Source: Candidatus Omnitrophota bacterium (GTDB taxonomy: Bacteria > Omnitrophota > Gorgyraeia > Duberdicusellales > 4484-171). From it: DNA of 64,000 nucleotides. The notes beneath the pieces are model-generated. The model did no database searches and had not been told where the DNA came from. It saw only the letters and a list, made by a program, of their open reading frames with translations. The stretch is from contig JAHKAJ010000015.1 of NCBI GenBank assembly GCA_018826075.1, positions 15,091 through 79,090 on the forward strand, in the 5' to 3' direction. A program made the position numbers and the translations under genes. Positions 1,683-51,246 of the stretch are shown here, piece by piece (position 1 is the first letter of the stretch; every line of letters begins with the position of its first letter).

Positions 1683-1691
1683 TTATTATCT

Positions 1692-2576: not shown

Positions 2577-2603
2577 GCCTCTCCTTGATTTGCAACCAAA
2601 TAG

Positions 2604-7782: not shown

Positions 7783-8705
7783 GATCTAAAAAAATTAATC
7801 AGGTTTTTTGTCGCTTCCACTTCCATTGCCAAACGAGATTCTCTGGTTAAAGTTCCCACATGGGGAGTTAAAATTACATTATCCAGTTCAAAAAGCTTTC
7901 CTCGATAGGGCTCCTTAGAAAAAACATCCAAGGCTGCCGCAGACAAATACTTGCTGGATAAAGCATCGTATAGAGCATTTTCATCAATAAATTTACCCCG
8001 GGAAGTATTGATTACAGCAGCCCCTCTTTTCATCAAGGATATTTTTTCTCTATCCAGCTTAAAAGAGTCAGCAGCATTATCAGAAAGATGGATAGATATA
8101 ATATCAACGACACTCAATAATTCCCGCACCGGTAAAACCTTCAAGTTATTGCTTTTAGCCCAGGCATCATCAATAACCATATCTGCCCCGTAAAGATCAG
8201 CCTCTAATCTATTTAATAATTCAACTACCCGGCGGCCTATCCTGCCTAAACCTAATATCCCCACTTTTGCTCCGCTCAATAAATTTCCAGATACCTTTTG
8301 CCATTTTCCCGACTTCAAAAGAGCGGTATGAAAACTCAAATTACGCAATAAATCAAAAAACATGGCAATGGTTAGTTCGGCCACCGGCTGGATTACCACG
8401 CTGGGAGTATTAAAAACAGCGATACCTTTTTGTTTAGCTTTCGATAGAGCTATATTATCTAAGCCTACGCCGCAACGTGAGATACAGCGAAGCTGCGGCA
8501 AATGGTCAATAACGTAATCGTCATAAGGTTCAAGGCCGGCGATTGCGCCTTCGGAATCTTTACCCATTTTGATTATTTCTTCCTGGACTAACCTTCGGCC
8601 TAAGGGATTAATAAAATACTCAAAACCATTTTGTTCAAGCAGATTCAGCGATTCTTTTCCGTGTTCAGCAAAAGTCGAAGCTGAAATAAATATTTTCTTA
8701 CTCAT
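7779..8705 (-). CDS. D-isomer-specific 2-hydroxyacid dehydrogenase family (PGDH/glycerate dehydrogenase-like).
   Basis: GILGLGRIGRRV NAD-binding motif and a catalytic-domain layout typical of the family. Confidence 0.7.
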   Translation of the reverse strand: MSKKIFISASTFAEHGKESLNLLEQNGFEYFINPLGRRLVQEEIIKMGKDSEGAIAGLEPYDDYVIDHLPQLRCISRCGVGLDNIALSKAKQKGIAVFNTPSVVIQPVAELTIAMFFDLLRNLSFHTALLKSGKWQKVSGNLLSGAKVGILGLGRIGRRVVELLNRLEADLYGADMVIDDAWAKSNNLKVLPVRELLSVVDIISIHLSDNAADSFKLDREKISLMKRGAAVINTSRGKFIDENALYDALSSKYLSAAALDVFSKEPYRGKLFELDNVILTPHVGTLTRESRLAMEVEATKNLINFFRS

Positions 8706-9469
8706 CTTATCTTTTGATAGAATGCCTGCTGAGCAGGGTCCTGAAGCAAAATCTTTTCAACCTCTTCTACATCACTTTCTCTATCTACGGCTACTGTCCG
8801 CTGAGGATAAATAACGCTGTAAATCGGATACCCGTGCTCAAGTATTCTTAAGAAATCTATGGATTCGGCTATTTCCATAGTCGTATGCGGCAAACTAGAA
8901 TATTGCCGTAAAAAAGTTTTGGTAAATGCAGAGATCCCTGTCTGGCGGTATGCCGGGCAATTATTTTTTACCCGCATATAGGGAACAGGCAGACGGGAAT
9001 AATACATAATATAGCCTCTATTGTTTAAAACCGCCTTAACCACGTCAGTATTATTTAAATCGCCTTCCTCGCTAATAACCGAAACCAAGTTAACGCATTC
9101 GGCCTTTTTATCCCTGACTATTGGCCGGACAACCAGATCAAAAGGGCCGGGATCAATAAGCGGCTCATCTCCTGAAATAATAACCACGATATCAACATCT
9201 AATTTTTCAGCTGCCTCTTCGATGCGGTCAGTGCAGCGCTGATGAGTATCAGCGGTCATAACCGCTTTCCCGCCATAGCGTTCAACAGTTTCTTTTATCT
9301 CATTATCGCAAGTAGCCACATAGACATCATTAAAAATTTCGGACAGAAGAGCCCGCCGGCGGACATGTTCAATCATCGGCAAACCCAATATATCCACCAG
9401 GGGTTTTCCGGGAAAACGCGAAGAAGCCATCCGAGCAGGAATAACTGCTGCTATCTTTTTTTTATTCAT
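8702..9469 (-). CDS. KdsB-like 3-deoxy-ulosonate cytidylyltransferase (CTP_transf_3 family).
   Basis: IAAVIPARMASSRFPGKPLVDILGLPMIEHV closely resembles the KdsB N-terminus; length is 255 aa. Confidence 0.65.
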   Translation of the reverse strand: MNKKKIAAVIPARMASSRFPGKPLVDILGLPMIEHVRRRALLSEIFNDVYVATCDNEIKETVERYGGKAVMTADTHQRCTDRIEEAAEKLDVDIVVIISGDEPLIDPGPFDLVVRPIVRDKKAECVNLVSVISEEGDLNNTDVVKAVLNNRGYIMYYSRLPVPYMRVKNNCPAYRQTGISAFTKTFLRQYSSLPHTTMEIAESIDFLRILEHGYPIYSVIYPQRTVAVDRESDVEEVEKILLQDPAQQAFYQKIR

Positions 9470-9491
9470 ATCAAAATTGCTTCATACATAA

Positions 9492-10106: not shown

Positions 10107-10109
10107 TAT

Positions 10110-10769: not shown

Positions 10770-11575
10770 TGGGTAGAAACTCGTTCTTTTTTTCTGATCT
10801 GATCAGTTATATTTCTCATGCGTTCGCTCCATTTCCATAATAAGAATATATCCGAAGCTAATACCACAAAGGTATAGCCCAATTTAAACTTATCCTCTAT
10901 AGCTTTCATGTCCGGATCGACTATGTGAGTGCCGCAAGCCTTATTGTGACGACGGCAAGAATCAATTACACGTATTGCCGCCTGGTTAACCTTTGGATGG
11001 TCCAATTGACCAGGAATACCCAACGACCCAGAAATATCATAAGGACCAACCATCACTCCATCTATTTGCTCAAAACTCAAAATCTGATCAATATTTTCTA
11101 CTCCCTTGACAGTCTCGATCTGCATAATCAAAGAAGATGAATCATTCCATGCTGACACATACTCATCAAAATCAAAACCATATCCTTGAGCCCGGGCAAC
11201 GCCAAAACTCCGGCTTCCCTCAGGTGGATACTTACACCAAGGGATTATCTTCTCTGCTTCTTCAGGCAAAGACACCATTGGAACCATTAACCCGTCTGCC
11301 CCTGAGTCCAGAAGACGCTTGATCATTTCCTGATTATGAGTAGCAATCCTAGGAAGGCACAAAGTGCCATTCACCTGAGAAGCGGTTATAATTCTCTGTG
11401 TCTGCTCCTGGCTTATGGTGCTATGCTCAATATCAACTCCTACGAAATCTACACCAATCCTGGAAAAAATCTCGGTTATCGAAGGATGACCCAGTGAAGT
11501 CCAAGCGCCAAAAACCGGTTTACGCTGTCTTAACTTCTGTTTAAATTCGTAACGTCTCTGATTTAATTCTTTCAT
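10766..11575 (-). CDS. HpcH/HpaI-family (class II, pyruvate-dependent) aldolase.
   Basis: Overall similarity to 2-keto-3-deoxy acid aldolases (GAWTSLGHPSITEIFSRIGVDFVGVDIEH...). Confidence 0.55.
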   Translation of the reverse strand: MKELNQRRYEFKQKLRQRKPVFGAWTSLGHPSITEIFSRIGVDFVGVDIEHSTISQEQTQRIITASQVNGTLCLPRIATHNQEMIKRLLDSGADGLMVPMVSLPEEAEKIIPWCKYPPEGSRSFGVARAQGYGFDFDEYVSAWNDSSSLIMQIETVKGVENIDQILSFEQIDGVMVGPYDISGSLGIPGQLDHPKVNQAAIRVIDSCRRHNKACGTHIVDPDMKAIEDKFKLGYTFVVLASDIFLLWKWSERMRNITDQIRKKERVSTQ

Positions 11576-12257
11576 CTTTTAACAATTCCTCCTCGGCTTT
11601 AGCAGCATCATCGAGAAACATTTTTACGGTTTCCTTAGTGTAGGGATGAATGATCATGCCTTTTAGTAGATTTGGTAAAACAGTTACAATATGAGCTCCG
11701 GCATGTAACCATTCGACAACATTCAACACCTCTCGTGTCGAACCTAATATTATTTTTGACTTCAATTTGAAATCCTCAAGCAATTTAGACAATTTCTTTA
11801 TTTCTTCAACAACGTTATAACCCATATTATTTACTCTTCCGCCAAACATAGAAACATAGGTCGCTCCGGCCATGGCAGCCAAGAAACACTGTTGGGCACT
11901 CATCATCGCCGTAACATTCACCCGAATATTGTGTCTTGTCTCCAACTCATGCACAACTTCTAGGTTATCTAACTCGCCTTCCGGACCGTGAACTGTAATT
12001 TTTACTACGATATTCTCAGCCCAGCTGGAAAACTCCTTAGCTTGATCAAACATCTTTTGACGATCATTAGTGGTAACTTCCACCGACAAAGGATAAGGAG
12101 CAATAACCCTGGCGATGTCTCGAGAACAATCTTTTAAAACTTTTTTAACTCCGGACCGATACAGAATCGTCGGATTAGTGGTCACTCCGCGTATTATCCC
12201 CAGTTTGTGAAACTGTTCTACTTCTTCAACTTTTCCGGTATCCAAAAATATAGCCAT
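11541..12257 (-). CDS. Transaldolase / fructose-6-phosphate aldolase family.
   Basis: AIFLDTGKVEEVEQ...GVTTNPTIL signature. A strong SD (AAGGAGGA) lies 7 nt upstream of the ATG. Confidence 0.7.
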   Translation of the reverse strand: MAIFLDTGKVEEVEQFHKLGIIRGVTTNPTILYRSGVKKVLKDCSRDIARVIAPYPLSVEVTTNDRQKMFDQAKEFSSWAENIVVKITVHGPEGELDNLEVVHELETRHNIRVNVTAMMSAQQCFLAAMAGATYVSMFGGRVNNMGYNVVEEIKKLSKLLEDFKLKSKIILGSTREVLNVVEWLHAGAHIVTVLPNLLKGMIIHPYTKETVKMFLDDAAKAEEELLKDERIKSETLRI

Positions 12258-12308
12258 AAAAATTCCTCCTTACTAATTGTTAATAACTATTTTGTTTTCA
12301 AAAACTTT

Positions 12309-12917
12309 TCATTTATTGTGTGCTAATGTACTTTCCCATTTATTTCCTGTCTGCATGACTCTGGGGTCAGAAACAATCAAATGCCAGATAACTCCCTGAA
12401 AAGCTTCGGTTTGAGGAGTAATCGTGTCGGGATTAACCACTGGTATAGTCAAACAGGCATCTGCTAATTTAGCGGTGTAACCGCCATCGTGGCCGACTAC
12501 GCCGACTATTTTAGCCTTGCAGCCTTTTGCATAATCAAGGGCATCGACAATATTAACACTTATATTTCTTTCCCGGTCACCGCCACCTACTGAAAAAACA
12601 AACAGGCAGTCTTTAGTATTCAAATTGCTGCCTTTAAGCCACTGGCTAAAAACCGTATGCCAGCCTTCGTCGTTAGTTCGGGCTGTCAGCTCAGAAATAT
12701 TATCTACCGGCGTATAAGCTTCAAAGCCGGCTATTTTTCTAAAATCGTTGACCGCGTGAGAACAATTTCCAGCGCTGCCGCCTACGCCGATAAAAAATAA
12801 ACGCCCTTTCTGGCTGCGGACTTTGAGCAAAACCTCTATCATCTTTTCGATTTGGCTTCGGTCTATCTTTTCGATAATAGCTGCGGCTTCTTTCAAATAC
12901 TGTTCTGGGTATAACAT
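12309..12917 (-). CDS. SIS-domain sugar-phosphate isomerase (GmhA-like sedoheptulose-7-P isomerase).
   Basis: FFIGVGGSAGNCSHAVNDF; 202 aa; single SIS domain. Confidence 0.7.
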   Translation of the reverse strand: MLYPEQYLKEAAAIIEKIDRSQIEKMIEVLLKVRSQKGRLFFIGVGGSAGNCSHAVNDFRKIAGFEAYTPVDNISELTARTNDEGWHTVFSQWLKGSNLNTKDCLFVFSVGGGDRERNISVNIVDALDYAKGCKAKIVGVVGHDGGYTAKLADACLTIPVVNPDTITPQTEAFQGVIWHLIVSDPRVMQTGNKWESTLAHNK

Positions 12918-12921
12918 CTGA

Positions 12922-13944
12922 CTATTTCTCCTTTTTCCTTAATAATATCCGGGCATAAGAACTGAGTAGATTGGCTTGTAAAAACTGTTGAAAAGAACGC
13001 TTAACATTCTCATCCCTATTTTCAACTATATATTTTACAAATCTAGGAAGCTTTACACTCTTGTTTTGTTGAGCTGTTTTGGCCACTATTGCCAAATCTA
13101 ACACCCCTGGCGTACTGAATTCAATACACTCAAAACCACGCCTTTCAAATAGAACCTTCAAACCTTCTACCGTAAACAGGTTCATTCTATCCGGCGGACA
13201 TAAATTTTCGGCCTTATCCCAAAGAATCTGTAAATCAAAACCGGAAATCAAAACTGTGGTTATGAAACAAAGCCCGCCCGACCTCAACATCTTATAGACT
13301 TTATCCAACAAAAGGTCAACATCAGAAGCCCGGTCAATGACTTCAAATAAGCAGACAACATCAGCTTCGTTACACAGATAAAGGTCTGCGATTTTGGAAT
13401 TTATAACTTTTATTTCCGAACTGAGCTTAAGGCTGTCTAGATCGAGAAAAGGATTTATTAATATTTTCTGCTCAAACTGCTCGGCTCCCAATATTTCTTC
13501 AATATAGTTATAGTGAGCGGTATTAATATCGACCAATTTCTTAGCCTGCGGAAAATATTCGGCAGTTGCGCCGTTTATCCAATCAAAACGCGGCTTGATT
13601 ATTTTCTCTTTCCTCTTGGAAGCTGTTACCTTAGAAAGTTCTTCCCGCCAGAATATCCGCGCTTGAGAATTGCGGTAATAATCGATTAAGGCCGCTTCAC
13701 TGGGCCGCGGCGACAGATAAACCGTTTTACAACTCTCACATTCTAAATAAGTTAAGCCCAATTTTACAAAAGCTTCTTTCTGGCCTCTGCTCTGGCAACC
13801 CGGACAAAGGCAAGGGGTTAGAATTTCCTCATTTACCAAAAAAGAAAAGACATCTTTTTCGATAAGCTTTAAATAAGTATTGAATAATTCTGAAGGCTTT
13901 AAATCAATTTCATTATATTCATCAAAGATTACAATATTTCTCAT
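12922..13944 (-). CDS. Zn-ribbon methyltransferase, possibly a TylC3/NovU-like sugar C-methyltransferase.
   Basis: CLCPGCQSRGQK...CESCKTVYLSP Zn-binding domain followed by an MTase-like region. The start is refined to the ATG at 13942..13944, which is preceded by GGGAGGA. Confidence 0.4.
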   Translation of the reverse strand: MRNIVIFDEYNEIDLKPSELFNTYLKLIEKDVFSFLVNEEILTPCLCPGCQSRGQKEAFVKLGLTYLECESCKTVYLSPRPSEAALIDYYRNSQARIFWREELSKVTASKRKEKIIKPRFDWINGATAEYFPQAKKLVDINTAHYNYIEEILGAEQFEQKILINPFLDLDSLKLSSEIKVINSKIADLYLCNEADVVCLFEVIDRASDVDLLLDKVYKMLRSGGLCFITTVLISGFDLQILWDKAENLCPPDRMNLFTVEGLKVLFERRGFECIEFSTPGVLDLAIVAKTAQQNKSVKLPRFVKYIVENRDENVKRSFQQFLQANLLSSYARILLRKKEK

Positions 13945-14962
13945 CGCCAATCCTCCCTTCGGCCTTGCCGTCTTGATAGGCTTTATCAATGATTTCCATA
14001 ACTGATAAGGCATCACTCGATGAGCTGCTGACAACCGGGCTATCGCTGTCAATACACTTTATAAATTCTTCTACCTCCAGCTCCCATGATTGATCACGAT
14101 CAAAATAAGTTATTTCCTCAGCCGGATTGCCGACCGCGCTAGCTTCATCTTCGAATTGCCGCCGGCCGACAACTAATTTTTCTCTTCCGTAGCTGCCTGA
14201 TTTAGACAAAAGGCCTTCGATTAAAATGTAGCCTTGTTCGAATATGATATTCAGTTGAAAGGCGTGTTTCCAAAGCGTAGCTGAGGAATGCAAAAAAGCA
14301 TTCTGGCCTCTTTGGTTTTGTAAAATAACATAAGCATTGTCTTCGAGATCGAACTTCCAGAATCTATTGCTGAGAAAACACTTTATTTTCTGGAAATCAC
14401 CGCAAAAATAACGAAAAAGATCCAACATGTGTATGCCTTGATCAAGTAATATGCCGCCGCCGGATAAATCTCTATTGTTTCGCCATGATTTTGCAAAGTT
14501 CAATCCTCCCGATTTACCATATACACCCCGCAAACCTATAATTTCACCAAGCCTTTTGCTGTCAACGATGACTTTAGCTTTCATTACCGCCGGATGAAAA
14601 CGGTGGTTAAAACCGAACATCAGTTTGGTTTTGGCGCCTTCTGCGGCGATTATGCTCTGAATATCCTCTAAATTTCTTCCCGGCGGTTTCTCACAAAAAA
14701 CGTGTTTACCTCTGTTCATGCTTTCAATACAAATCTTAGGCGAATAGCTGTTAGGCGTACAAACAAAGATTATTTCCGGATCTCTCCGGATAAGTTCTTG
14801 GAATGATTTAAATACCGGGCAGCCGTCAACGGCTTTGGCTGCTTCCGGATCGGGATCAACGATCCCGATTAACTTTAAACGCGGATTATTTTCGATAACC
14901 AATTTGCGTATTTTACCCATATAACCATAACCGACTATGCCAACCTTATAAATCTTATTCAT
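13922..14962 (-). CDS. Gfo/Idh/MocA-family NAD(P) oxidoreductase.
   Basis: KVGIVGYGYMGKIR Rossmann motif. Confidence 0.7.
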   Translation of the reverse strand: MNKIYKVGIVGYGYMGKIRKLVIENNPRLKLIGIVDPDPEAAKAVDGCPVFKSFQELIRRDPEIIFVCTPNSYSPKICIESMNRGKHVFCEKPPGRNLEDIQSIIAAEGAKTKLMFGFNHRFHPAVMKAKVIVDSKRLGEIIGLRGVYGKSGGLNFAKSWRNNRDLSGGGILLDQGIHMLDLFRYFCGDFQKIKCFLSNRFWKFDLEDNAYVILQNQRGQNAFLHSSATLWKHAFQLNIIFEQGYILIEGLLSKSGSYGREKLVVGRRQFEDEASAVGNPAEEITYFDRDQSWELEVEEFIKCIDSDSPVVSSSSSDALSVMEIIDKAYQDGKAEGRIGDEKYCNL

Positions 14963-14971
14963 AATATATCC

Positions 14972-16819
14972 TCATTCAACGAACTTAGCCAAAGTTTCTT
15001 TGCTGGGCGGATGAAAATAGCTAGCCAGATAAGCCTTAGCTTTATCCCTTTGCAGATTAAAATCTTCCTGGCTTAAATTGTCTATCTCATCTAGTTTTGC
15101 TTTTAAAGAATCTTCTTTATGGACTACCCATTTTAGATGGCGGCAATCAAACAAAGGATCATAACTTAAAATTTCTCCGCGGTCAAAATGGATAACCGGT
15201 TTACCGATACTTAAGGCTTCCAGAGAAACAGTGGTTCCCCAATAGATAACAATATCGGCCCAAATAATATCGTCATAGAGATAATTTCCGTTGGAAACGC
15301 TGACGTTAGGCATCCGGCTCAAATCATAAGCAAACCTTCTTTTAAAATAAGGCCAGGGAACCATGGGATGAGTCCTTATTTTTATATGATAGCCGTTACG
15401 GCCCTGCATCTGGCTTAAAACATAATCCACTATACAGTGGACATCGATATTGCCTTCCAAAGCCACCAAAATATTCTTCAAACGCTTTCTTGGCTGAAAA
15501 GGTTTATCAAAAAGATATTCAAAACGCAAACCACAGGTAGCCTCAATAAAGCCCGGCTCATATTCACCATACCTCTCCATAATCTTCTTGGTTTCAACCC
15601 CAACAGTCAATATTTTATCCGGCAAAGGAGATAATGACCTATCGTGACCGACAACAAACATATTCACTGAAGATTGAGGAACAACCGTATGTTGATAGCC
15701 GATAATCCGGCTAGCCGGAGAATATCGCCTTAAAGCTAATATACACATCCGTTCCCAAGGTTTATTCTCATAAGTTAGAAGGAACTTTTCAACAGCAACT
15801 TTCTTAATCAGATTCTTAGTGCTCCAATAATGCAAAAAATGATAAAATCGGACGCCCTTAAAGGTCCTTTTTAATTCAGCGTTGATTATATCGGAAACAT
15901 CGTATCCGAAAAATAAAACCTTCCGATTAATCCTGATTTTAGTAAATAAAAACTCTATGGCCGCCTTTACAATACTCGGCAAAGTTAAGAGAGCTTCTAC
16001 CGGCAAAATAATCCGCTGCTGGCATTGGCTAATTTTTTTTAGGCACTGTTTATAATCACCTAAAATGCAGGCGTAAATCAAACTCTTTTGCTTACCCTTT
16101 AAAAACTCCGGCAAACTACCAAAAAAAACATCGCGGTAACTACCGTCTTTTAAAAACGAATGGTTATAAATAAAAGTTTTAATAACATAATAGGACTTTT
16201 TAGGATTAAGCTCTTTTTTTATCCTTGAGCCTAATTGTTTTCTGGCATATAAACTACGGCGATAAAACTTTACCGTCTTATATATAACTCCGATGGTTCT
16301 TCGAACAGTTATATATATTGAATCTAACCGCTTCTCGGCCGGATTACCGAAATAATGAAATTGTATATTAACGCTCTTTAAAGTTTTCTTCAGTAACCCG
16401 ATTGTGCTAATTGCCGGGCCGACAATAATTAACTGCAGATAGTCTTCATCTTTGGCAACTTTTGTCATAGTCAAAAACTGATAAAGAAACTCTGGAACTT
16501 TTGAGGCAAATCTGTCTTTGGAGGCTATATCGGTAGCCCACCATACCTTAGAAGAACTAAACTCTTGGGAACAACTCGCAATAGCTTTGTTGTATTCACG
16601 CAGGAATGCATCACGATAAAACTCATCGTGTTCGGACTTAGGGATTTTTTTAAAATTCTTAGCTTCGAGAAGATCCTCAGCCTTTTTGCTGACAGTTTTC
16701 CACAAAAGATATTTCCTGCCTTTTTGCTCTTTAGACGAAAGTGTAGCGAGATAGCTGATTAGCCGTCTTTCGGTTTTAAAAACAAGCGCTGATTTTATAA
16801 ATAGAGTTTCTTTATTCAT
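14972..16819 (-). CDS. Large GT-B-like protein, possibly a KpsC/KpsS (Capsule_synth)-type ulosonic-acid transferase.
   Basis: C-terminal ...DIVIYWGTTVSLEALSIGKPVIHF... resembles the Capsule_synth/TagF-type nucleotide-sugar binding motif. 615 aa. Confidence 0.3.
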   Translation of the reverse strand: MNKETLFIKSALVFKTERRLISYLATLSSKEQKGRKYLLWKTVSKKAEDLLEAKNFKKIPKSEHDEFYRDAFLREYNKAIASCSQEFSSSKVWWATDIASKDRFASKVPEFLYQFLTMTKVAKDEDYLQLIIVGPAISTIGLLKKTLKSVNIQFHYFGNPAEKRLDSIYITVRRTIGVIYKTVKFYRRSLYARKQLGSRIKKELNPKKSYYVIKTFIYNHSFLKDGSYRDVFFGSLPEFLKGKQKSLIYACILGDYKQCLKKISQCQQRIILPVEALLTLPSIVKAAIEFLFTKIRINRKVLFFGYDVSDIINAELKRTFKGVRFYHFLHYWSTKNLIKKVAVEKFLLTYENKPWERMCILALRRYSPASRIIGYQHTVVPQSSVNMFVVGHDRSLSPLPDKILTVGVETKKIMERYGEYEPGFIEATCGLRFEYLFDKPFQPRKRLKNILVALEGNIDVHCIVDYVLSQMQGRNGYHIKIRTHPMVPWPYFKRRFAYDLSRMPNVSVSNGNYLYDDIIWADIVIYWGTTVSLEALSIGKPVIHFDRGEILSYDPLFDCRHLKWVVHKEDSLKAKLDEIDNLSQEDFNLQRDKAKAYLASYFHPPSKETLAKFVE

Positions 16820-16822
16820 TAA

Positions 16823-18991
16823 CTATAGCACTCCGGTGTATTTGTCTCTCAAATAAACAGCTTTAAAAGGGCTTACCGTTCCTTGAAAAACTTGCCTTAC
16901 CTTATCATGGCCCCAAATATTACCGTAACGCTCGGCCGCATCGGCTAAAACTTTCTCTCGAGGAAGTTTTGCTTTAAACCCATCCAAGAGCCATTTCAAA
17001 TAGGTACCTATTCTTTCAGCGGCCCGACCATCCCTAAAAGGATCTATCTCATCAAGTATGGACGACCAATTGCCAAATTCCGGCATGCTCGAAGCATTAT
17101 TCCAATACTCACTGCATGTCTTCCATAAATTCTGCCAATCAGTGAAAACAACACGCCCTGTACCTAATCTGTACAATGAGCTTACTTTCCAACCTTCTCT
17201 GTCCAAAAGAAGTGTCGGCGCGCCGGCTAAAGCCGACTCCACCCCTGCTGTTGCCACGCAAAGATGACCATGAACCGCAACATCACAAGCAATAGCTGCT
17301 AATGCCGGGGGATACCAACCATGCAACAGACCTCCTTCAATTACCAAACATCGGCCAGTCTCCTCAGCGCGCTTCAATAATTCGGCCACTTTTCCCAATC
17401 GCAATCTCAGTGTAGTTGGAACCTTGGGTTTGAAAATAATTCCCAGCTCCGGTTCTGATAAAACTCTTTCAAGTAAAAAACTATAATTCTCCCGCATAAA
17501 CTCATGACCGGTATGCCAACGAGAATCATCAGCTGAACCTTCATCAAAATAAGCTAAGATATATTTTGCTCCGCTCTCTTTAAGTTTATTTCGAATTGCT
17601 TGAGCCGGTTTTTTCAGCAAAGGAAACCTATGGTCACCAAAATAACCTACAGCAACATGATAGGGGATTAATGAGCCGGACCTTCTTTCGATGTCTGCAT
17701 TCCGAGAAGAAAATCCAAAAACTATATCTGAAACAATAGTTGTGCCCATCGAAGAAAACTCTTCAAATGCTCTCTGGTAGATAGCCAAAACTCCTCCTAG
17801 TTTTTCTAAAACATCGGCTATTATGCAATGTTCATGGCCATATTTATACCAAGTTAAATATATTTTCCCATTATAACTGGTAAAAAAATCAAACCAATAA
17901 TTATATTGTGAGACAAAATAAGCCAATTGCTGCTTTAGCCATTTCTTTTCTGCCTTATCTTTTGAAAGGTCTAAACTACTTTTGAAATAATTCACATCTA
18001 GATTGCACTTCCGATGATAAAATACCTCAGCATTTGGAACCTCAACAGCATCGGGAGAAAGAGCAATTGCCCTCATGTCGTACTGTTCAACTTCTTGCAG
18101 CTTTTTTTTATCTAAAGGATCCTCGGCGAAGTTAAAATTAATAACTATATCTTCAGCTGACAAACTGGAATTTTGCCAAAAGAATAAATCAGAAGTTAAT
18201 TCTGGTTGGGCTAAATTAAGGTGTCCGTAGTATTGAACTGCTAGTTTTGGCGATGGATTTCGAGCCGGGAAAACAGCCCTCGTCTGTCTTAAAAACTTAA
18301 TAAGCCCTTCTCGTTTAATAAAAAAACATATACTTTGGAAAAGCTTTAGTTTTGCTCCGCTAAGCCTTACTAAAATATCTCTGAGATTGATGTGCCAATT
18401 TTTTATCGGTATAAGTTCTACTTTGTACTTAGAAGAGTACTTCTTTATCTCCCTCCACCACATCCTCTTATTTATGAAGAGAACTTTTTCTGTATCCTTA
18501 GCTGAAGAATCTTCTTTGGTTTTCCATAGGGCAAGCTGAATTAAAAGCTGTGCCCGCCATACAGTAGAATTTACATTGTAATAAAGATTGGCGATTCGCT
18601 TAGTAAGAAATGTTAGTGTTTTTTTATTAATCTCTTGGCAAGAATCTAATTTTTTAAAAATATCACGAGATAAGATGTCTTTTTGAACCTCAGCAAAATC
18701 GAAATAATCCAGTCTCAGCCTTATGAGATTTCCCGAATCATCTTTAATGTCAATGATTCGAAATTCCAGCTTCCGGAAAGAAAAGCCTAATATTCGAGAA
18801 ATGAAACCAGCAAGAACAAATCCGGCTTTACTCGTATCAATTACATATATATCTTTCTTTATTGATTGCGGCTTTTTTTTCAACAAATAAGGCAATACAT
18901 AAAATAAGTATGAACTCAGAGTGAGCTCCTCAATAAAACACAAACAATGAGTGTCTTTATTACAAGATTGTTTTTGTGTTGAAAAATTCAT
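16823..18991 (-). CDS. Large GT-B-like protein, a paralogous KpsC/KpsS/TagF-like putative transferase.
   Basis: ...CDVAVHGHLCVATAGVESALAGAPTLLLD... motif. The start is probably the ATG at 18989..18991, just after the upstream stop. Confidence 0.3.
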   Translation of the reverse strand: MNFSTQKQSCNKDTHCLCFIEELTLSSYLFYVLPYLLKKKPQSIKKDIYVIDTSKAGFVLAGFISRILGFSFRKLEFRIIDIKDDSGNLIRLRLDYFDFAEVQKDILSRDIFKKLDSCQEINKKTLTFLTKRIANLYYNVNSTVWRAQLLIQLALWKTKEDSSAKDTEKVLFINKRMWWREIKKYSSKYKVELIPIKNWHINLRDILVRLSGAKLKLFQSICFFIKREGLIKFLRQTRAVFPARNPSPKLAVQYYGHLNLAQPELTSDLFFWQNSSLSAEDIVINFNFAEDPLDKKKLQEVEQYDMRAIALSPDAVEVPNAEVFYHRKCNLDVNYFKSSLDLSKDKAEKKWLKQQLAYFVSQYNYWFDFFTSYNGKIYLTWYKYGHEHCIIADVLEKLGGVLAIYQRAFEEFSSMGTTIVSDIVFGFSSRNADIERRSGSLIPYHVAVGYFGDHRFPLLKKPAQAIRNKLKESGAKYILAYFDEGSADDSRWHTGHEFMRENYSFLLERVLSEPELGIIFKPKVPTTLRLRLGKVAELLKRAEETGRCLVIEGGLLHGWYPPALAAIACDVAVHGHLCVATAGVESALAGAPTLLLDREGWKVSSLYRLGTGRVVFTDWQNLWKTCSEYWNNASSMPEFGNWSSILDEIDPFRDGRAAERIGTYLKWLLDGFKAKLPREKVLADAAERYGNIWGHDKVRQVFQGTVSPFKAVYLRDKYTGVL

Positions 18992-19007
18992 AATACTCTG
19001 CAATATT

Positions 19008-19769
19008 TCACCAGGCGCTCCAACCGCCATCCACATTTAATACTTCACCAGTTATATAGTTTGATGCTTCACTGGCCAGAAAAAGACAGCAGTTAGCTAC
19101 ATCCAGGGAGCTGCCCCATTTCTTTTGGGGTGTTCTTTCTATAGTAAACTTATATAAATCTTCTTTCTTCTTGAAATTTTCAAAGTATGAAGTCTGGCAA
19201 AATCCGGGAGCAATAGTATTAACGTTAATATTATGCTCTGCCCATTCAAGAGCCAAACACTTTGAAAGCGTAATGATAGCTCCCTTAGAAGCTCCATAGG
19301 CTGAAAGCTCAGGTAAGCCAAGAGTTCCAACAATAGAAGAAATATTTATAATCTTGCCACTCTTTTTTGAAACCATACTTTTGCCAACTTCGCGGCAAAA
19401 GAAATAAACACTATTAAGATTATTACTTATTACTTGATTCCACTCTTGGCTGTTGGTATCAAGGAATTTTTTTCTAAATCGCATGCCGGCATTATTTATA
19501 AGTAGATCGATCTTATTAAATTTTTCAATTGTTTGCTTCACAAATTTCTCAACAACCTCTTCCTTGGATACATCCCCTTCATATAAAAATATACGCTTGG
19601 AATCAAAACTAACTTCCTCTTTAAGGCTTGATAAATCCTTTAAATTTCTGCTAATAAGAGCAATATTCGCTCCTTCTTTATAAAAAAGCTTGGCAGTCTC
19701 TCTTCCTATACCTTTGCCAGCGCCGCTAATAATAGCTACTTTATCTTTTAATGCGTATTCCTGGGCCAT
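19008..19769 (-). CDS. Short-chain dehydrogenase/reductase (SDR).
   Basis: VAIISGAGKGIGRETA with YxxxK later. Confidence 0.75.
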   Translation of the reverse strand: MAQEYALKDKVAIISGAGKGIGRETAKLFYKEGANIALISRNLKDLSSLKEEVSFDSKRIFLYEGDVSKEEVVEKFVKQTIEKFNKIDLLINNAGMRFRKKFLDTNSQEWNQVISNNLNSVYFFCREVGKSMVSKKSGKIINISSIVGTLGLPELSAYGASKGAIITLSKCLALEWAEHNINVNTIAPGFCQTSYFENFKKKEDLYKFTIERTPQKKWGSSLDVANCCLFLASEASNYITGEVLNVDGGWSAW

Positions 19770-19788: not shown

Positions 19789-20928
19789 CTATTTTATAAT
19801 ATAATCAAACGTCTTATTTATAAAATCCTCATCTATATCATCATATACCTGACAACTTCCAATTTCTTTCGGCAAAACAAACCTTAACTTATTATCTTTC
19901 TTTTTTTTATCTTTATTTATATTCAGCACACAATCTTTAATCAAATCATCACGGTTAAATGAGATCTTTTCGGTTTCAACCCTTATCGGAAGCCCGTATT
20001 GTCTAAGGATTTCCTCATGGGCCGCCAAAACAGTTTCATCAGATCCAAGGTATTGCTTTGCTAAATGGGCTGCAGCAACCATACCTAAAGACACACCTTC
20101 TCCATGTCTATATACCTCCTGAAGAGTATCGGTAGAAATCTCTATCGCATGGCCGAGGGTATGACCATAGTTCAACTTAAGCCTTTTAGCTTGTTCTTTT
20201 ACATCGCCGGCCACATGTTCAAGCTTTATCTCTATAGTTCTACACATAATATAAAACAAAACTTCCTCTTGGCGTTTAAGTATTTGTGCGCTATTAGCTT
20301 TAAGGTAACTAAAAAAATCCTTATCGCAGATAAAAGAACATTTTATAATCTCGGCTAACCCAGCCTTAAAGTCACGTTGAGATAATGATTCTATAAAGTC
20401 AAGATCTACGATATTTACTATCGGATGATAATAATTTCCTATAGCATTAATAGTCTTTCGGAAATTAATCGCTACTTTACCTCCAATACTACTATCGATC
20501 ATGGCAGTAAGGGTCGTTGGTATATGCGCAAGATTTATGCCTCTATGGTAAGTACTTGCCACAAAACCGGCTAAATCTCCGATGACTCCTCCCCCTAAAG
20601 CTATAATTGTTGAATCTCGCGAAAATCCGCTAATTTCAAGCAATTCGTAGATTTTGATTGCCTCACTTATAGTTTTATTGTGCTTGCCGGATTCCATAGC
20701 ATAAAAGTAAACATCGTAACCCTCCTTTGATAGAGAAGCTGCTAAGTTTTTGCTAACTTTATCTTTAAAAAAGGAATCAAAAACTAAAAGGATTTTTCTA
20801 TTTTTAGTTTTTTCCGACAATATCTCAACGAGATTACTCGTGAGCAAATCTTTTCCAATAAGAATATCATATTTGCTGCTATCAAAATTTACTCGATATT
20901 TCTTACTAGATAATGTTTTTTGACTCAT
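19789..20928 (-). CDS. 3-dehydroquinate-synthase-like sugar-phosphate cyclase (DHQS/DOIS/EEVS superfamily).
   Basis: GGGVIGDLAGFVASTYHRGINLAHIPTTL and the later metal-binding His residues; 379 aa. Confidence 0.7.
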   Translation of the reverse strand: MSQKTLSSKKYRVNFDSSKYDILIGKDLLTSNLVEILSEKTKNRKILLVFDSFFKDKVSKNLAASLSKEGYDVYFYAMESGKHNKTISEAIKIYELLEISGFSRDSTIIALGGGVIGDLAGFVASTYHRGINLAHIPTTLTAMIDSSIGGKVAINFRKTINAIGNYYHPIVNIVDLDFIESLSQRDFKAGLAEIIKCSFICDKDFFSYLKANSAQILKRQEEVLFYIMCRTIEIKLEHVAGDVKEQAKRLKLNYGHTLGHAIEISTDTLQEVYRHGEGVSLGMVAAAHLAKQYLGSDETVLAAHEEILRQYGLPIRVETEKISFNRDDLIKDCVLNINKDKKKKDNKLRFVLPKEIGSCQVYDDIDEDFINKTFDYIIK

Positions 20929-20937
20929 AATAACATC

Positions 20938-21600
20938 CTAAATTACAAAAAGGCCTGTGTTGACAATTAACTCTGCAACCTTAAAGTCTTCGGGTGTGTC
21001 AATGTCATGACCTTCAAAATGATCAATAAACTTTATATAAGAATTTTGAGAAATTCTCTGACCGGTTTTTTCAAAAATTTCCCTTTTAAATACGTACAAA
21101 CTAGATTGTTCAACGATCACCGGATCTATATCCTGAGTACGGGGAGTTGAAACGCCAAGAGAATAATTCAAAGGCTTGCCACCAAACCAACAAAACTTTT
21201 TTACCTGGTAGGCAGTGAAAGCTGAATCATATTCTCCACTGTTGACCTTATCTATACATTCAGCTATAGTCTGTGGCTTCAAGAAAGGTGAGGTAATATG
21301 TAAAAGCACAATCGTATCAGCCTTATCTTTCTTTAAAAACTCAGCTATAATATCTTGTATTTTTGCCTCTTGGCTATCCAGACTCTTGGGCCGCTCTAGA
21401 AACTTATATTTCAAACCATGCTCAATATGCTTGCAAATAGAATCCTCTGAGGCAAATATTACGACTTCATCGATCGAAGGAACTTTATTCATCGCCTTAA
21501 CTGTGTAATTTATTAAAGGAATACCCCCTAATTTTTTTATGTTTTTAAACGGGACTCTTTCGCTATTAAGCCTTGACGGTATGAATCCTACTGTCCTCAT
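20938..21600 (-). CDS. Acylneuraminate (nonulosonate) cytidylyltransferase-like (CTP_transf_3 family).
   Basis: VGFIPSRLNSERVPFKNIKKLGGIPLINYT. Confidence 0.6.
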   Translation of the reverse strand: MRTVGFIPSRLNSERVPFKNIKKLGGIPLINYTVKAMNKVPSIDEVVIFASEDSICKHIEHGLKYKFLERPKSLDSQEAKIQDIIAEFLKKDKADTIVLLHITSPFLKPQTIAECIDKVNSGEYDSAFTAYQVKKFCWFGGKPLNYSLGVSTPRTQDIDPVIVEQSSLYVFKREIFEKTGQRISQNSYIKFIDHFEGHDIDTPEDFKVAELIVNTGLFVI

Positions 21601-36507: not shown

Positions 36508-37497
36508 TTAGGTAACTGGACAATAATTATCTTCTTTTTTTAACAAACGATTAAAATGCACAAGCAACTCTCCAAGAATAAACTCATGACTCAAAAAACA
36601 CTGCGACAGTGTAGGCAATTGGCAGTTGTCTTTAGCTAATATATCGGCAACAAATGTTTTACTCATATGGCTTACATTCCAATCTTCATCTATGGCAATA
36701 TTGTGCCATTGCCAATCTGATGAAAGATGACTTTCATAGGCAAATTTTTGAAAATGATCAATAATAAACCTGCAGTTTGGCGTATGAATAGTAGTGTGGT
36801 CAGGACTCTTGTTGTCACCGGCAAATGAAATCATGAATTTGCTTCCTTTGTCAGAATAACCGCAGATACTTCCGCTTAGATCACAAACTTGCGGCCCACG
36901 CTTTGAAGAATGAACTATTGGGTCTATCTGGGAACCGAAACTCTTAAGCTGTTTCGACTCATCAAAAAATACAAATAAATCAACTACATGGACACCTATA
37001 TTAGCTAAGCCGTGATTGCCTCCGATTACACTAAACAACAACGGTTCATTCACATTTAGGCACGATTTAATATACTCATGAATAGCATAAGCCCGACTCT
37101 TACAGTTAACCCAAACTAAAAGGTCATTAATCTTACAAAATGTCATTAAATCCTGATAATCTTCTACTGATTGTGACACTATCTTTTCTATTAAAAACTT
37201 TTTATAGCCAAGCTTGCTAGCAGCCTGCTTAACCATATCGCAGCGAATATCAGCCTGGGTTGCGACAATGCAAAGATCACCGTTAGCTGACTCATCATTT
37301 AACTCACTAAACCAACTAAACTTTATTGCCTTGTTTAAATCTGATAACTCTTGCAAGCGCAATTTGCCGACTTCAGCTGCCTTAGGATTAGAGTCAACAA
37401 CATGGACTTCGCCAACCGCACCAAGATAAGCTACTGCCTGCAGGTGCCGACTGCCGAGTGCTCCACAACCAATAATAAGAACTTTATATTGCTTCAT
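36508..37497 (-). CDS. Gfo/Idh/MocA-like oxidoreductase.
   Basis: KVLIIGCGALGSRH. The start is refined to the ATG at 37495..37497, which forms an ATGA overlap with the upstream stop; the track's start is a TTG. Confidence 0.55.
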   Translation of the reverse strand: MKQYKVLIIGCGALGSRHLQAVAYLGAVGEVHVVDSNPKAAEVGKLRLQELSDLNKAIKFSWFSELNDESANGDLCIVATQADIRCDMVKQAASKLGYKKFLIEKIVSQSVEDYQDLMTFCKINDLLVWVNCKSRAYAIHEYIKSCLNVNEPLLFSVIGGNHGLANIGVHVVDLFVFFDESKQLKSFGSQIDPIVHSSKRGPQVCDLSGSICGYSDKGSKFMISFAGDNKSPDHTTIHTPNCRFIIDHFQKFAYESHLSSDWQWHNIAIDEDWNVSHMSKTFVADILAKDNCQLPTLSQCFLSHEFILGELLVHFNRLLKKEDNYCPVT

Positions 37498-38306
37498 TGT
37501 ATTTTCTGCTGGCCGGTCGGCACCCCCCAAAACTCACAACCATTACACAAGGCCACTTCTTTTCTTCTTCCTTCTATATGTTTCTTTAACCATTGCCCTC
37601 TCTGAGAACCATTCCAAATATCTGCTAAAGCTGTTGAGTTGCAATCTCCAATAATACCTAAACCTTTAGGATCAAACCTTACACATATAGAAACTTTTCC
37701 ATCTCTGCGGATAACCATATGATTAAGAAAGTCTAAGCAAACTCCTATCTCAGGTATAGTTGGATTCTTTTTATAGCTAAAACTACCCATAGGAGAATGC
37801 AGTATGCGAGTCGCGACTATACATCCTAAATCCTTATACCGGGTTAAATCCATCTCGCCTAAACAACGTATTATGACATTAGGCTTTCTTGGTCCTTTGA
37901 TTTTTAGAAATTCTTTAATCAACTTATATTGTTCTTCTTGATCTTTATCCTTCTCAAATGTTGAAATAGTCAAAGTATCTAAATTATCAATAATTTCATT
38001 GGCTTTTTCGACTATTAATTTGCCGTTAGTATCCATGCATCTAATTTGCCGAGTAAACAAGCTCGCTGCTTCTTTAAATCTAGGATAAAGAAGCGGCTCG
38101 CCATTATTATGAAGTTGAACCACAATTGAATCCGGTAATTGCTTGGCAATTGATTCAACCAGTTCGAACTCCATATCGCCATAGTTAAGGGCGATCTCTG
38201 GATAATCCCGATCAACCTTTCTGCGTCCGCACATCCAACAATCTTTGTTGCAGCGATTGGTTAACTCTATATTTACAGTCGTCAAATTATTAAAACATTT
38301 ATCCAT
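37494..38306 (-). CDS. Small radical-SAM enzyme with a C-terminal Cys-rich (twitch/SPASM-like) region.
   Basis: TNRCNKDCWMCGRR (CxxxCxxC) and C-terminal ...CNGCEFWG. Confidence 0.65.
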   Translation of the reverse strand: MDKCFNNLTTVNIELTNRCNKDCWMCGRRKVDRDYPEIALNYGDMEFELVESIAKQLPDSIVVQLHNNGEPLLYPRFKEAASLFTRQIRCMDTNGKLIVEKANEIIDNLDTLTISTFEKDKDQEEQYKLIKEFLKIKGPRKPNVIIRCLGEMDLTRYKDLGCIVATRILHSPMGSFSYKKNPTIPEIGVCLDFLNHMVIRRDGKVSICVRFDPKGLGIIGDCNSTALADIWNGSQRGQWLKKHIEGRRKEVALCNGCEFWGVPTGQQKIQ

Positions 38307-50185: not shown

Positions 50186-51246
50186 TGCTTAATTATGGTT
50201 GAATTGCTAGCTATCTTTTCAGCCGCTAAAACATCCTTGTCAACATCTGCCCAAGACTGATGATCAGGAGCATAGTAAATTATCTGACTACCTAAAGTAT
50301 CAAACTTAAAAGGAACATAGAGTAACTCACCCAAAGCCTTTCTTACCTGAGGCTGAAGCTCAGGTTTAACAAAAAATAAAATAAACCCTCCACCACCGGC
50401 TCCCAAAAGTTTTCCGCCGCTGGCTCCGGCTCTGATAGCGCTTTCATATATTTCATCAATAACCGGAGTTGAGATCTTAGAAGTTAAACTCCTTTTTAAC
50501 ATCCAATTTTCATTAAGTAACTTACCAAACTCATCATAGCTATCTTTGCTTTGATTTAAAATATCCATTGCTGCAGCCACCATCTCATGCATAGCTGAAA
50601 GTTCCTTCTTTTTATTGGCCGTTTTTCTTATTTGCTCTTCGGCAATTTCAGAAGCAGTTCTTGAAAAACCAGTAAAAAACAACATTAGATGCTTTTGAAA
50701 ATGTTGCATTTTCTCAAGATCTACAGTTACCGGCTGAACTTCAATGTTATGGCTGTTAAAGGTAATTTCATTAAATCCGCCGAACGCGGCGATGGTTTGA
50801 TCTTGTGAACCAACATGCTCTTTGATTCGCTCCTGCTCAATGTGAATAGCTTCAAGCGCCAGCTGCTTCTTAGTTATCATATTGCCTTTTAAAGCATATA
50901 AAGCATTAAGCAAGCCTACGGTAAAAGATGAACTTGAGCCAAGACCGGTTCTAGCCGGCAAATCGCCATCATGATGTATTTCTACCCCCTTATCTAAATT
51001 CATAAAACCTAAACATTCCCTAACTGAGGGGTGTTTTATCTGAGAAAGCTTTTTTACTGCCTCGCGTTCTGAATAGACTATTCTATATTTATAACCAAAA
51101 AATGGCGGAAGGTACCGACAAGTTACATAACAATACTTATTAATTGAAGCTGAAATCACGGAGCCTTCATTTTCCTTATACCAAACCGGGTAATCAGTCC
51201 CTCCGCCAAAAAACGAAATTCTGAATGGAGTTCTGCTTATAATCAT
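50182..51246 (-). CDS. GHMP sugar kinase (HddA-like heptose-7-P kinase).
   Basis: IISRTPFRISFFGGGTDYP; GHMP motif PxGSGLGSSSS, here ARTGLGSSSS. Confidence 0.7.
   Translation of the reverse strand: MIISRTPFRISFFGGGTDYPVWYKENEGSVISASINKYCYVTCRYLPPFFGYKYRIVYSEREAVKKLSQIKHPSVRECLGFMNLDKGVEIHHDGDLPARTGLGSSSSFTVGLLNALYALKGNMITKKQLALEAIHIEQERIKEHVGSQDQTIAAFGGFNEITFNSHNIEVQPVTVDLEKMQHFQKHLMLFFTGFSRTASEIAEEQIRKTANKKKELSAMHEMVAAAMDILNQSKDSYDEFGKLLNENWMLKRSLTSKISTPVIDEIYESAIRAGASGGKLLGAGGGGFILFFVKPELQPQVRKALGELLYVPFKFDTLGSQIIYYAPDHQSWADVDKDVLAAEKIASNSTIIKQ

Follow-up and report, generated by a model that had tools for sequence, protein, structure and literature searches.

The stretch of Candidatus Omnitrophota DNA analysed here (contig JAHKAJ010000015.1, positions 15,091 to 79,090; 64,000 nucleotides, hereafter the window) carries about 62 genes, every one of them on the minus strand, at about 38% G+C. 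It is a very large, single-strand surface-glycan locus of about 60 kb that includes rhamnose genes, sulfate-activation genes, an ABC exporter, a Wzy-like protein, two NeuB synthases, four cytidylyltransferases of the CTP_transf_3 family, and several methyltransferases. The gene at 19789..20928 codes for a relative of dehydroquinate synthase (DHQS, the AroB protein), named DHQSL, and is flanked by genes for a cytidylyltransferase and a short-chain dehydrogenase/reductase (SDR). These genes, together with a more distant one that recurs beside DHQSL relatives elsewhere, are:

20938..21600, minus strand: B220, a short (220 aa) NeuA/PseF-like cytidylyltransferase (Pfam CTP_transf_3, E 4e-21)
19789..20928, minus strand: DHQSL, a DHQS-like enzyme, intact open reading frame (ORF) with an ATG start, 379 aa
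19008..19769, minus strand: SDR253, a classical SDR reductase of 253 aa (Pfam adh_short_C2, E 4e-64)
8702..9469, minus strand: a KdsB-type cytidylyltransferase (NF009905, 271 bits, cut-off 255)

B220 and DHQSL are separated by 9 bp, DHQSL and SDR253 by 19 bp, and SDR253 overlaps the next gene by 29 bp, which indicates a single operon in the window. The initial annotation had placed a 379-aa DHQS-family protein at 19789..20928, and this holds: the ORF is real, its ATG is preceded by a Shine-Dalgarno-like AGGA, and its Pfam and NCBIfam matches lie far beyond chance, so that DHQSL is a genuine DHQS relative and a DHQS paralogue. Specifically, both DHQS domains are present (PF01761 DHQ_synthase, E 8e-38; PF24621 DHQS_C, E 8e-35), the NCBIfam aroB equivalog TIGR01357 is passed marginally (318.5 bits, cut-off 305), and TIGR04425, an AroB-related putative cyclizing sugar-phosphate phospholyase, scores 212.2 bits, below its 400-bit cut-off. 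A sequence search of the PDB returns Vibrio cholerae DHQS (8e-56) ahead of the synthase that forms 2-deoxy-scyllo-inosose (DOIS; 2d2x, 2e-34), the 2-epi-5-epi-valiolone-forming synthase (EEVS) ValA (2e-33), and desmethyl-4-deoxygadusol synthase (DDGS; 4e-22). Moreover, the 41 PDB structures nearest to the AlphaFold (AF2) model of DHQSL (pLDDT 92.3) are all DHQS (TM 0.79-0.90), with ValA at rank 42 and DOIS (2gru) at rank 45.

The active site was compared in an alignment of 41 DHQSL relatives with 59 ordinary AroBs, E. coli AroB among them, using 13 ligand residues of the Aspergillus nidulans DHQS structure placed by motif spacing (R130, D146, K152, N162, E194, K197, K250, R264, N268, H271, H275, H287, and K356, A. 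nidulans numbering). Of these, E194, H271, and H287 are the zinc ligands, K250 and R264 the carboxylate binders, and R130, K152, N162, N268, H275, and K356 the phosphate binders. All 13 are invariant across the 41 clade members and the 59 AroBs; in the numbering of DHQSL itself, N253 corresponds to N268 and K341/K342 to K356, while K235 and R249 are the retained carboxylate binders. The equivalent of N268 is Glu in DOIS (E243 of BtrC), Asp in EEVS, and Ala in DDGS. A two-site EEVS/DDGS fingerprint has been described (PMC4426668). At the N268 and K356 fingerprint positions, DHQSL is of the DHQS type and not of the DOIS, EEVS, or DDGS type. An identity as EEVS, 2-epi-valiolone synthase (EVS), or DDGS was rejected because the Asn, the Lys, and the carboxylate binders are kept and because ValA and DDGS are distant; an identity as DOIS was rejected because the N268-position Asn and the carboxylate binders are kept and because the two DOIS structures match as remotely as given above. 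A pocket with this ligand set would fit 3-deoxy-2-heptulosonate 7-phosphate and not sedoheptulose 7-phosphate or glucose 6-phosphate. Since the fold, the 13 ligands, and a TIGR01357 score above the cut-off are all shared, DHQSL very probably has the substrate class and the opening chemistry of AroB, and a cyclitol or aminocyclitol product derived from sedoheptulose 7-phosphate or glucose 6-phosphate is unlikely. As a separate observation, one 386-aa DHQS-family representative (P0257) has an altered ligand set (R-H-R-N-E-K-T-G-Q-H-H-H-R-K at the 14 checked positions) and probably represents another uncharacterised sugar-phosphate-cyclase specificity.

Despite this shared pocket, DHQSL and its relatives form a group of their own. 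A neighbour-joining tree recovers them as a monophyletic sister clade of the 59 AroBs, the smallest distance between a clade member and an AroB being 0.63 and the mean distance within the clade 0.42. Identity to DHQSL is 45-68% in the clade and 39% or less in ordinary AroBs, and two collection scans found the same clean gap, with clade members at 45-56% and all others at 39% or less. Database relatives that are 50-68% identical come from Omnitrophota, Zambryskibacteria (of the Candidate Phyla Radiation, CPR), Saganbacteria, Margulisiibacteria, Brocadiaceae, Ignavibacteria, and metagenome-assembled genomes (MAGs) of delta-proteobacteria, and the clade also occurs in Pseudomonadales and Legionellales, which makes at least eight phylum-level lineages in a census that is a lower bound. 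In an exhaustive profile search, scores of 394-594 bits are reached by a few clusters formed at 50% identity; beneath them comes a sister group in which the core signature K-E-S-F-T-Y-H persists to scores as low as about 326 bits. DHQSL has 14 of the 14 residues of the clade signature, whereas ordinary AroBs have none or one. Out of 74 columns conserved at 85% or more in AroB, 57 are unchanged in the clade and 10 carry a systematic replacement (E73K, A116S, L132T/M, G150T, K151I/V, F157Y, Q159H, V163N, E177D, and E234V, E. coli numbering), several of which flank the N162 loop, K250, and R264. AroB E73 binds the adenine ribose of NAD, and its replacement by lysine in the clade may reflect the use of NADP.

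The genomic context of the clade was examined in 16 independent clade loci, one of them in the window, plus two more divergent members. An AroK-like neighbour is found in 0/16 clade loci, compared with 18/58 ordinary AroB loci, and no shikimate-pathway neighbour of a clade gene was found in the loci examined. Ordinary AroBs with 33-35% identity to DHQSL occur in Hinthialibacteria/OP3, Kuenenia, and Ignavibacteriales, and a tblastn search of plasmids with DHQSL returned nothing but ordinary aroB at 35% identity or less. Compared with AroB (EC 4.2.3.4; TIGR01357, PF01761/PF24621), DHQSL is alike in fold, in its 13 ligands, and in an identity of 29-37%, and differs in its separate clade, in the loss of ten near-universal AroB residues, and in a setting that is never beside aroK or other shikimate genes and always in glycan loci with an SDR and CMP-type cytidylyltransferases. 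The relatives carry the database name 3-dehydroquinate synthase; as judged from orthology and gene context, DHQSL nonetheless separates from AroB and is a diverged, horizontally mobile AroB paralogue, the founding member of a so far undescribed AroB-like subfamily of glycan loci.

The second line of evidence is the conservation of the partners. In 16/16 clade loci, and in the divergent locus L176, the gene immediately downstream of DHQSL codes for an orthologous SDR (52-70% identity), and a B220 orthologue lies directly upstream in 13/16 clade loci but in 0/58 ordinary-AroB loci; a fourteenth locus (L096) has a B220 homologue within 10 kb, and two loci (L090, L093) have two copies. In seven loci (L005, L006, L007, L086, L097, L099, L100), a KdsB-type cytidylyltransferase directly follows the SDR; these genes score 221-281 bits with NF003952 (cut-off 193), and those of L086 and L100 also pass the kdsB equivalog cut-off. 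The CPR and Legionellales versions consist of DHQSL, SDR, and the KdsB-type gene, with B220 missing. The product of 8702..9469 clusters with the post-SDR KdsB-type proteins of the seven loci and is possibly a displaced fourth member, 10 kb from the rest in the window. The known substrates of KdsB are 3-deoxy-2-ulosonic acids. B220 scores 82 bits with the PseF model, below its cut-off, has NeuA as its closest PDB match (4e-15), and retains the cytidylyltransferase catalytic motifs (N-terminal R...KN and C-terminal DID), and SDR253 is generic, similar to FabG and gluconate 5-dehydrogenase. NeuB occurs within 10 kb in only 5/15 loci, which argues that these genes act independently of nonulosonate synthesis. 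Taken together, B220, DHQSL, SDR, and in some loci the KdsB-type gene constitute a portable cassette of three to four genes that horizontal transfer has carried into at least eight phylum-level, almost wholly uncultured lineages.

The genes that accompany the cassette point to the use of its product. In the window, two genes for proteins without an assigned function follow SDR253:

16823..19036, minus strand: unk737, an unknown 737-aa protein whose gene overlaps the SDR stop by 29 bp
14972..16819, minus strand: unk615, an unknown 615-aa protein with a weak TIGR04326 match

unk737 has zero sequence matches in Pfam, NCBIfam, or the PDB and, with homologues in 7/15 clade loci, is a candidate transferase from its position. 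For unk615, the database holds 179 homologues at E<=1e-10, and each of the 120 listed is unnamed or "hypothetical" and lacks a Pfam domain; the AF2 model of unk615 (pLDDT 92.4) has an extra N-terminal region and is matched by Foldseek to the GT-B fold (NeuC-type epimerases, MurG, CalG, TagF, and WaaA, the transferase of 3-deoxy-D-manno-octulosonic acid (Kdo)) with E values of 1e-9 to 1e-7. Homologues of unk615 are likewise found in 7/15 clade loci and adjoin the four-gene cassette in L099 and L100, in which no NeuB lies nearby; on the strength of the modelled fold, unk615 is a candidate nucleotide-sugar transferase and a candidate new glycosyltransferase family of loci rich in CMP-sugars. A third recurring family without a Pfam domain (620-646 aa) is present in 6 loci. 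Moreover, a Maf-type flagellin glycosyltransferase is encoded among the divergently transcribed neighbours in L096, a 727-aa flagellin gene (5603-7786, plus strand) lies two genes upstream of the DHQSL/SDR/KdsB-type cassette in a Legionellales MAG (L007), and the cassette comes after Wzm/Wzt in the Zambryskibacteria locus (L086). The GT-B, Maf, flagellin, and Wzm/Wzt neighbours indicate that the product is used on surface polysaccharides or flagellin, a niche equal to that of CMP-activated nonulosonic acids.

The AroB-derived cassette thus probably diverts a shikimate-type intermediate into a CMP-activated glycan building block, and DHQSL probably does not serve aromatic amino acid synthesis. 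From the family, active site, clade separation, cassette conservation, partner enzyme types, and glycan/flagellin context, all observed, we infer the substrate, the order of the steps, the CMP activation of the DHQSL product, and its possible carbocyclic nature. In this proposal, which we hold to have about even chances, DHQSL would be a neofunctionalised AroB descendant, and the cassette would make a reduced, CMP-activated seven-carbon (C7) acid for surface glycans or flagellin from a heptulosonate phosphate of the DAHP type. Specifically, a 3-deoxy-2-heptulosonate 7-phosphate (the 7-phosphate of 3-deoxy-D-arabino-heptulosonate, DAHP, or a stereoisomer) would be taken from central metabolism; DHQSL would oxidise C5 through tightly bound NAD(P)+ and then eliminate the 7-phosphate as DHQS does; the SDR would reduce the keto product to a seven-carbon alpha-hydroxy or ulosonic acid; the cytidylyltransferase or cytidylyltransferases would form its CMP ester; and transferases of the GT-B-fold and Maf types would put the C7 acid onto a surface polysaccharide or flagellin. 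In the carbocyclic branch of this route, the hydride would return to C5, the enol-pyranose would cyclise to 3-dehydroquinate, and the SDR would convert the latter to a quinate-like acid. The enol-pyranose intermediate of DHQS cyclises essentially spontaneously, and with all DHQS ligands kept the default first product would be 3-dehydroquinate; in addition, the tertiary C1 hydroxyl beside the carboxylate of a quinate-like acid mimics the anomeric centre of Kdo or 3-deoxy-arabino-heptulosonic acid (DAH), which makes a CMP ester plausible. A quinate-like product is nevertheless put forward tentatively, and slightly more tentative still is the complete version, in which a CMP-activated "carba-ulosonic acid" would be made from DAHP via 3-dehydroquinate and attached by GT-B or Maf transferases to flagellin or polysaccharides, including in CPR bacteria.

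Several points weigh against this proposal. No DAHP synthase was seen within 10 kb of the cassette in any locus, and no DAHP synthase, Kdo 8-phosphate (Kdo8P) synthase, or aldolase lies beside it in L097, L099, L100, L005, or L006. To our knowledge, CPR bacteria generally lack the shikimate pathway, which leaves the substrate in Zambryskibacteria unexplained. Nor does the proposal explain why a single cassette should need two cytidylyltransferases of different kinds. Against the carbocyclic branch in particular, a carbocyclic tertiary CMP ester has no ring oxygen to form an oxocarbenium ion, and its transfer by an ordinary glycosyltransferase would be unprecedented. Furthermore, the systematic loss of AroB-universal residues may mean that the outcome of the reaction differs from that of DHQS, and most loci also contain nonulosonate genes, so that the cassette might instead serve to modify nonulosonates. 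Other sources and substrates were considered and set aside. A local supply of erythrose 4-phosphate and pyruvate by the HpcH aldolase, transaldolase/fructose-6-phosphate aldolase (TAL/FSA), and SIS isomerase genes of the window was rejected as a general explanation because this block is not conserved in any other locus. Kdo8P or a nonulosonate 9-phosphate is chemically unfavourable by reasoning, since the pyranose carbon to be oxidised is the carbon that bears the ring oxygen, and the conserved carboxylate-to-phosphate geometry suits seven carbons. Cytidylylation first, with CMP-DAHP as the substrate of DHQSL, is unlikely: the closed DHQS pocket would have to be opened to admit a nucleotide, and the clade lacks any insertion that could do so.

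The closest competitor keeps the phospho-elimination and dispenses with ring closure. DHQSL would act as a dehydratase that delivers the hydride to C7 (1,4-reduction) and not to C5, in the manner of NDP-hexose 4,6-dehydratases, whose 2-alkoxy-enone has the identical structure, giving a 5-keto-3,7-dideoxy-heptulosonate; the SDR would be a ketoreductase, and the KdsB-type or NeuA-like enzyme would form CMP-3,7-dideoxy-heptulosonic acid, a true glycosyl donor and the seven-carbon counterpart of the 9-deoxy-nonulosonic acids. The basis of this view is an analogy with the pairs of NDP-hexose 4,6-dehydratases and 4-ketoreductases, which likewise combine NAD-dependent oxidation beside the ring-oxygen carbon, beta-elimination to a 2-alkoxy-enone, and reduction by an SDR; the 4,6-dehydratases differ from DHQSL in having another fold, in expelling water and not phosphate, and in acting on a nucleotide-linked and not an unlinked substrate. 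The universal pairing with an SDR resembles such dehydratase/ketoreductase pairs, the partners are typical of a sugar-nucleotide pathway (KdsB-type enzymes above curated cut-offs, GT-B and Maf transferases, a flagellin context), all downstream steps are chemically precedented, and the ten replaced second-shell residues, several of them around the N162 loop, K250, and R264, permit such a change and do not prove it. However, the first-shell catalytic residues are all unchanged and DHQSL still scores above the AroB equivalog cut-off, and we know of no report of a 3,7-dideoxy-heptulosonic sugar of this kind; this route is accordingly rated unlikely, below the carbocyclic branch. Improbable to a greater degree is an accessory role in nonulosonic acid synthesis, in which B220, DHQSL, and SDR would parallel LegF, PtmF, and PtmA and act on an intermediate of the legionaminic or pseudaminic type, perhaps turning it into a 9-deoxy sugar through loss of a 9-phosphate, or epimerising a side-chain carbon through oxidation and reduction. 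In the window, as in L084, the trio comes directly after a complete legionaminic-acid-type gene set, which in the window lies directly upstream of the cassette and reads in transcription order:

legionaminic set, first part: a canonical PtmF/LegF/PtmA-like trio, NeuB, a B12-radical-SAM enzyme, a 2-epimerase, and a PglD-like acetyltransferase
legionaminic set, rest: a HisF/HisH-like pair, a 399-aa unknown protein, a PtmE-like CBS-nucleotidyltransferase, a 4,6-dehydratase, and the LegC aminotransferase

In the legionaminic trio PtmA/LegF/PtmF (PMC4481668, Table 5), the SDR has about 250 aa and the cytidylyltransferase about 220-230 aa, and the third member is an NAD-dependent oxidoreductase. The arrangement in three parts and the sizes are those of B220/DHQSL/SDR, and the two trios often share a locus; DHQSL holds the slot of the NAD-dependent oxidoreductase while the canonical trio is also present, and several loci have two or three NeuB genes. 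On the other hand, PtmF has the Gfo/Idh/MocA fold and not the DHQS fold, and the cassette also occurs without NeuB, which is missing within 10 kb in 10/15 loci, among them the CPR locus and the compact ones with four genes. An identity of SDR253 as PtmA is not supported, since the PtmA model is missing among the 25 matches listed for it, whereas SDR267 reaches 138 bits with FlagModPtmA, which is below the cut-off of 350. Moreover, the carboxylate and phosphate binders spaced for a seven-carbon pyranose are invariant, although a nine-carbon substrate would not need them, and the second cytidylyltransferase is KdsB-type and not NeuA-type.

Far less credible is an ordinary housekeeping aroB that lies in, or was carried with, a glycan island. 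The passed TIGR01357 model, the full ligand set, and the database names of the relatives speak for it; against it stand the separate clade with its conserved signature, the lack of any AroK-like neighbour, a cassette of SDR and cytidylyltransferase strictly conserved across at least eight phylum-level lineages, the ordinary AroBs of related lineages, and the presence of the clade gene in a CPR genome. The reading of the initial annotation, a cyclase of sedoheptulose 7-phosphate or glucose 6-phosphate (EEVS-, DDGS-, or DOIS-like) that makes a cyclitol or aminocyclitol with the help of DegT and BtrN-like enzymes, is largely refuted and the least probable of all. Its recognition of a DHQS paralogue outside an aromatic context and inside a glycan locus stands, and a carbocyclic product as such keeps some likelihood, so that the interpretation is supported in part. 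The superfamily is right, and the neighbours on which the reading drew do exist in the window, namely the TAL/FSA (11541..12257), the SIS protein (12309..12917), the split transketolase (51243..53029), three DegT genes (22693, 46850, and 63008), and the radical-SAM enzyme, here a radical-SAM/SPASM protein (37494..38306), a type found within 10 kb of DHQSL in 8/15 loci. Gfo/Idh/MocA dehydrogenases are present as well, five and not the six that had been counted (2604, 34511, 35506, and 36508 by Pfam; 13922..14962 by its N-terminal motif only). As functional partners, however, these genes do not hold up: transaldolase, transketolase, and SIS are beside DHQSL in 0/14 other loci, as is the HpcH aldolase, and DegT occurs in only 3-4/15. 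The active-site comparison that had been suggested as a check gave a strict match to AroB, one half of what the initial annotation had itself named as speaking against its reading; the carboxylate binders, N268, and K356 are of the DHQS type, and DOIS, EEVS, and DDGS are far more distant than DHQS. Nor would a carbasugar in a cell-surface glycan be wholly new, as had been supposed, because caryose is a carbocyclic monosaccharide of the lipopolysaccharide of Pseudomonas caryophylli (PMC9026286). The point of interest is hence an unrecognised, widely transferred AroB-derived cassette and not a sedoheptulose-derived cyclitol.

Among the systems to which the proposed pathway can be compared, the C7N-aminocyclitol routes follow the same logic on paper: a DHQS-family cyclase, one or more reductases, nucleotide activation, and a GT-B-fold transferase. 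In validamycin and acarbose biosynthesis, these roles fall to the EEVS enzymes ValA/AcbC, cyclitol reductases, the nucleotidyltransferase VldB, and the GT-B pseudo-glycosyltransferase VldE, and we know of no other precedent for a nucleotide-activated carbasugar donor. With respect to the features of such a pseudo-glycosyl-donor pathway, a cyclase-type enzyme and cytidylyltransferases are conserved together in the clade loci, and the GT-B neighbour is of generic fold only. The C7N-aminocyclitol cyclases use sedoheptulose 7-phosphate and have a changed fingerprint, whereas the DHQSL pocket is of the DAHP type; likewise, a cyclitol phosphate is there converted by a GlgC-type enzyme to a GDP or NDP ester on an allylic carbon, whereas the DHQSL cassette has no conserved kinase, relies on CMP-type (CTP_transf_3) nucleotidyltransferases, and would present a tertiary and non-allylic carbon if its product is activated. 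The pathway of 8-amino-3,8-dideoxy-D-manno-octulosonic acid (Kdo8N) in Shewanella, in which KdnB, an oxidase of the Fe-dependent alcohol dehydrogenase (Fe-ADH) superfamily, acts with KdnA ahead of KdsB, is alike in that a redox enzyme of the DHQS/Fe-ADH superfamily tailors a 3-deoxy-ulosonic acid before CMP activation of the KdsB type. In contrast, KdnB belongs to the Fe-ADH branch, oxidises alcohols, and is paired with an aminotransferase, and DHQSL is AroB-like, keeps the phosphate-elimination site intact, and has a reductase as its partner. Full-text literature searches found no paper in which a DHQS homologue is connected with loci for O-antigen, nonulosonates, or flagellin glycosylation.

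If the proposal is true, DHQSL would open a new branch of the sugar-phosphate-cyclase (DHQS) superfamily, and the cassette would supply bacterial surface or flagellin glycans with a new building block of seven carbons, CMP-activated and either carbocyclic or 7-deoxy. Either product would be a new monosaccharide-like constituent and would bear on phage and immune recognition. Should the carbocyclic reading hold, the product would be the first carbocyclic acid activated by a nucleotide, cell-surface glycans would gain a new kind of pseudo-glycosylation, and the first committed shikimate-pathway intermediates would have a second metabolic fate; as a carbocycle escapes labelling with 1,2-diamino-4,5-methylenedioxybenzene (DMB), this would also bear on mass-spectrometric surveys of ulosonic acids. 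Moreover, "3-dehydroquinate synthase" labels in CPR and other MAGs may be miscounted as evidence of a shikimate pathway in metabolic reconstructions.

Other parts of the window and of the related loci suggest further ulosonic acid routes. A second NeuB homologue (286 aa), without a SAF domain, lies in the block at 41041-42632 (minus strand) and has a PseF-like cytidylyltransferase of its own as partner, along with an SDR, a VOC/glyoxalase-fold protein, and two methyltransferases; this block is probably a second, distinct ulosonic acid pathway. In L096, a 386-aa protein in which a CTP_transf_3 cytidylyltransferase is fused to a HAD phosphatase (1462-2622, minus strand) is encoded beside a SAF-less NeuB homologue, which indicates a ulosonate-phosphate intermediate in that locus. 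The block at 7779-12917 (minus strand) contains a 2-hydroxyacid dehydrogenase, the KdsB-type cytidylyltransferase, a hexapeptide acyltransferase, a HAD phosphatase, an HpcH/HpaI pyruvate aldolase, the TAL/FSA, and the SIS isomerase, and looks like a self-contained pyruvate-aldolase route, without KdsA or NeuB, to another CMP-activated 3-deoxy-ulosonic acid. Next to it, a 346-aa ORF with a Gfo/Idh/MocA-like N-terminal motif (13922-14962, minus strand) is masked by the over-extended TTG start of a methyltransferase ORF (12922-14052, minus strand); given the 131-bp overlap of the two calls, the methyltransferase probably starts later.

Lastly, several genes bear on the tailoring of the glycan. 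B12-binding radical-SAM enzymes are encoded at 30592-32037, 48052-49482, and 53011-54516 and the radical-SAM/SPASM protein at 37494-38306 (all minus strand); B12-radical-SAM enzymes recur in 5/15 related loci and SPASM proteins within 10 kb in 8/15, a recurrence that suggests C-methylation or other radical tailoring of sugars. The upstream end of the locus (60352-63024, minus strand) holds genes for ATP sulfurylase and a CysQ/inositol-monophosphatase-like protein, and a 356-aa P-loop protein with a faint sulfotransferase match (21611-22681, minus strand) is encoded between LegC and the cassette, with a counterpart in L084 and a similar 341-aa protein in L176; these sulfation genes hint at a sulfated glycan. 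The dTDP-glucose 4,6-dehydratase RmlB (658 aa; 56428-58404, minus strand) has its domain split by an insert that matches Pfam Intein_splicing (residues 133-421, E 3e-7) and appears to contain an intein.

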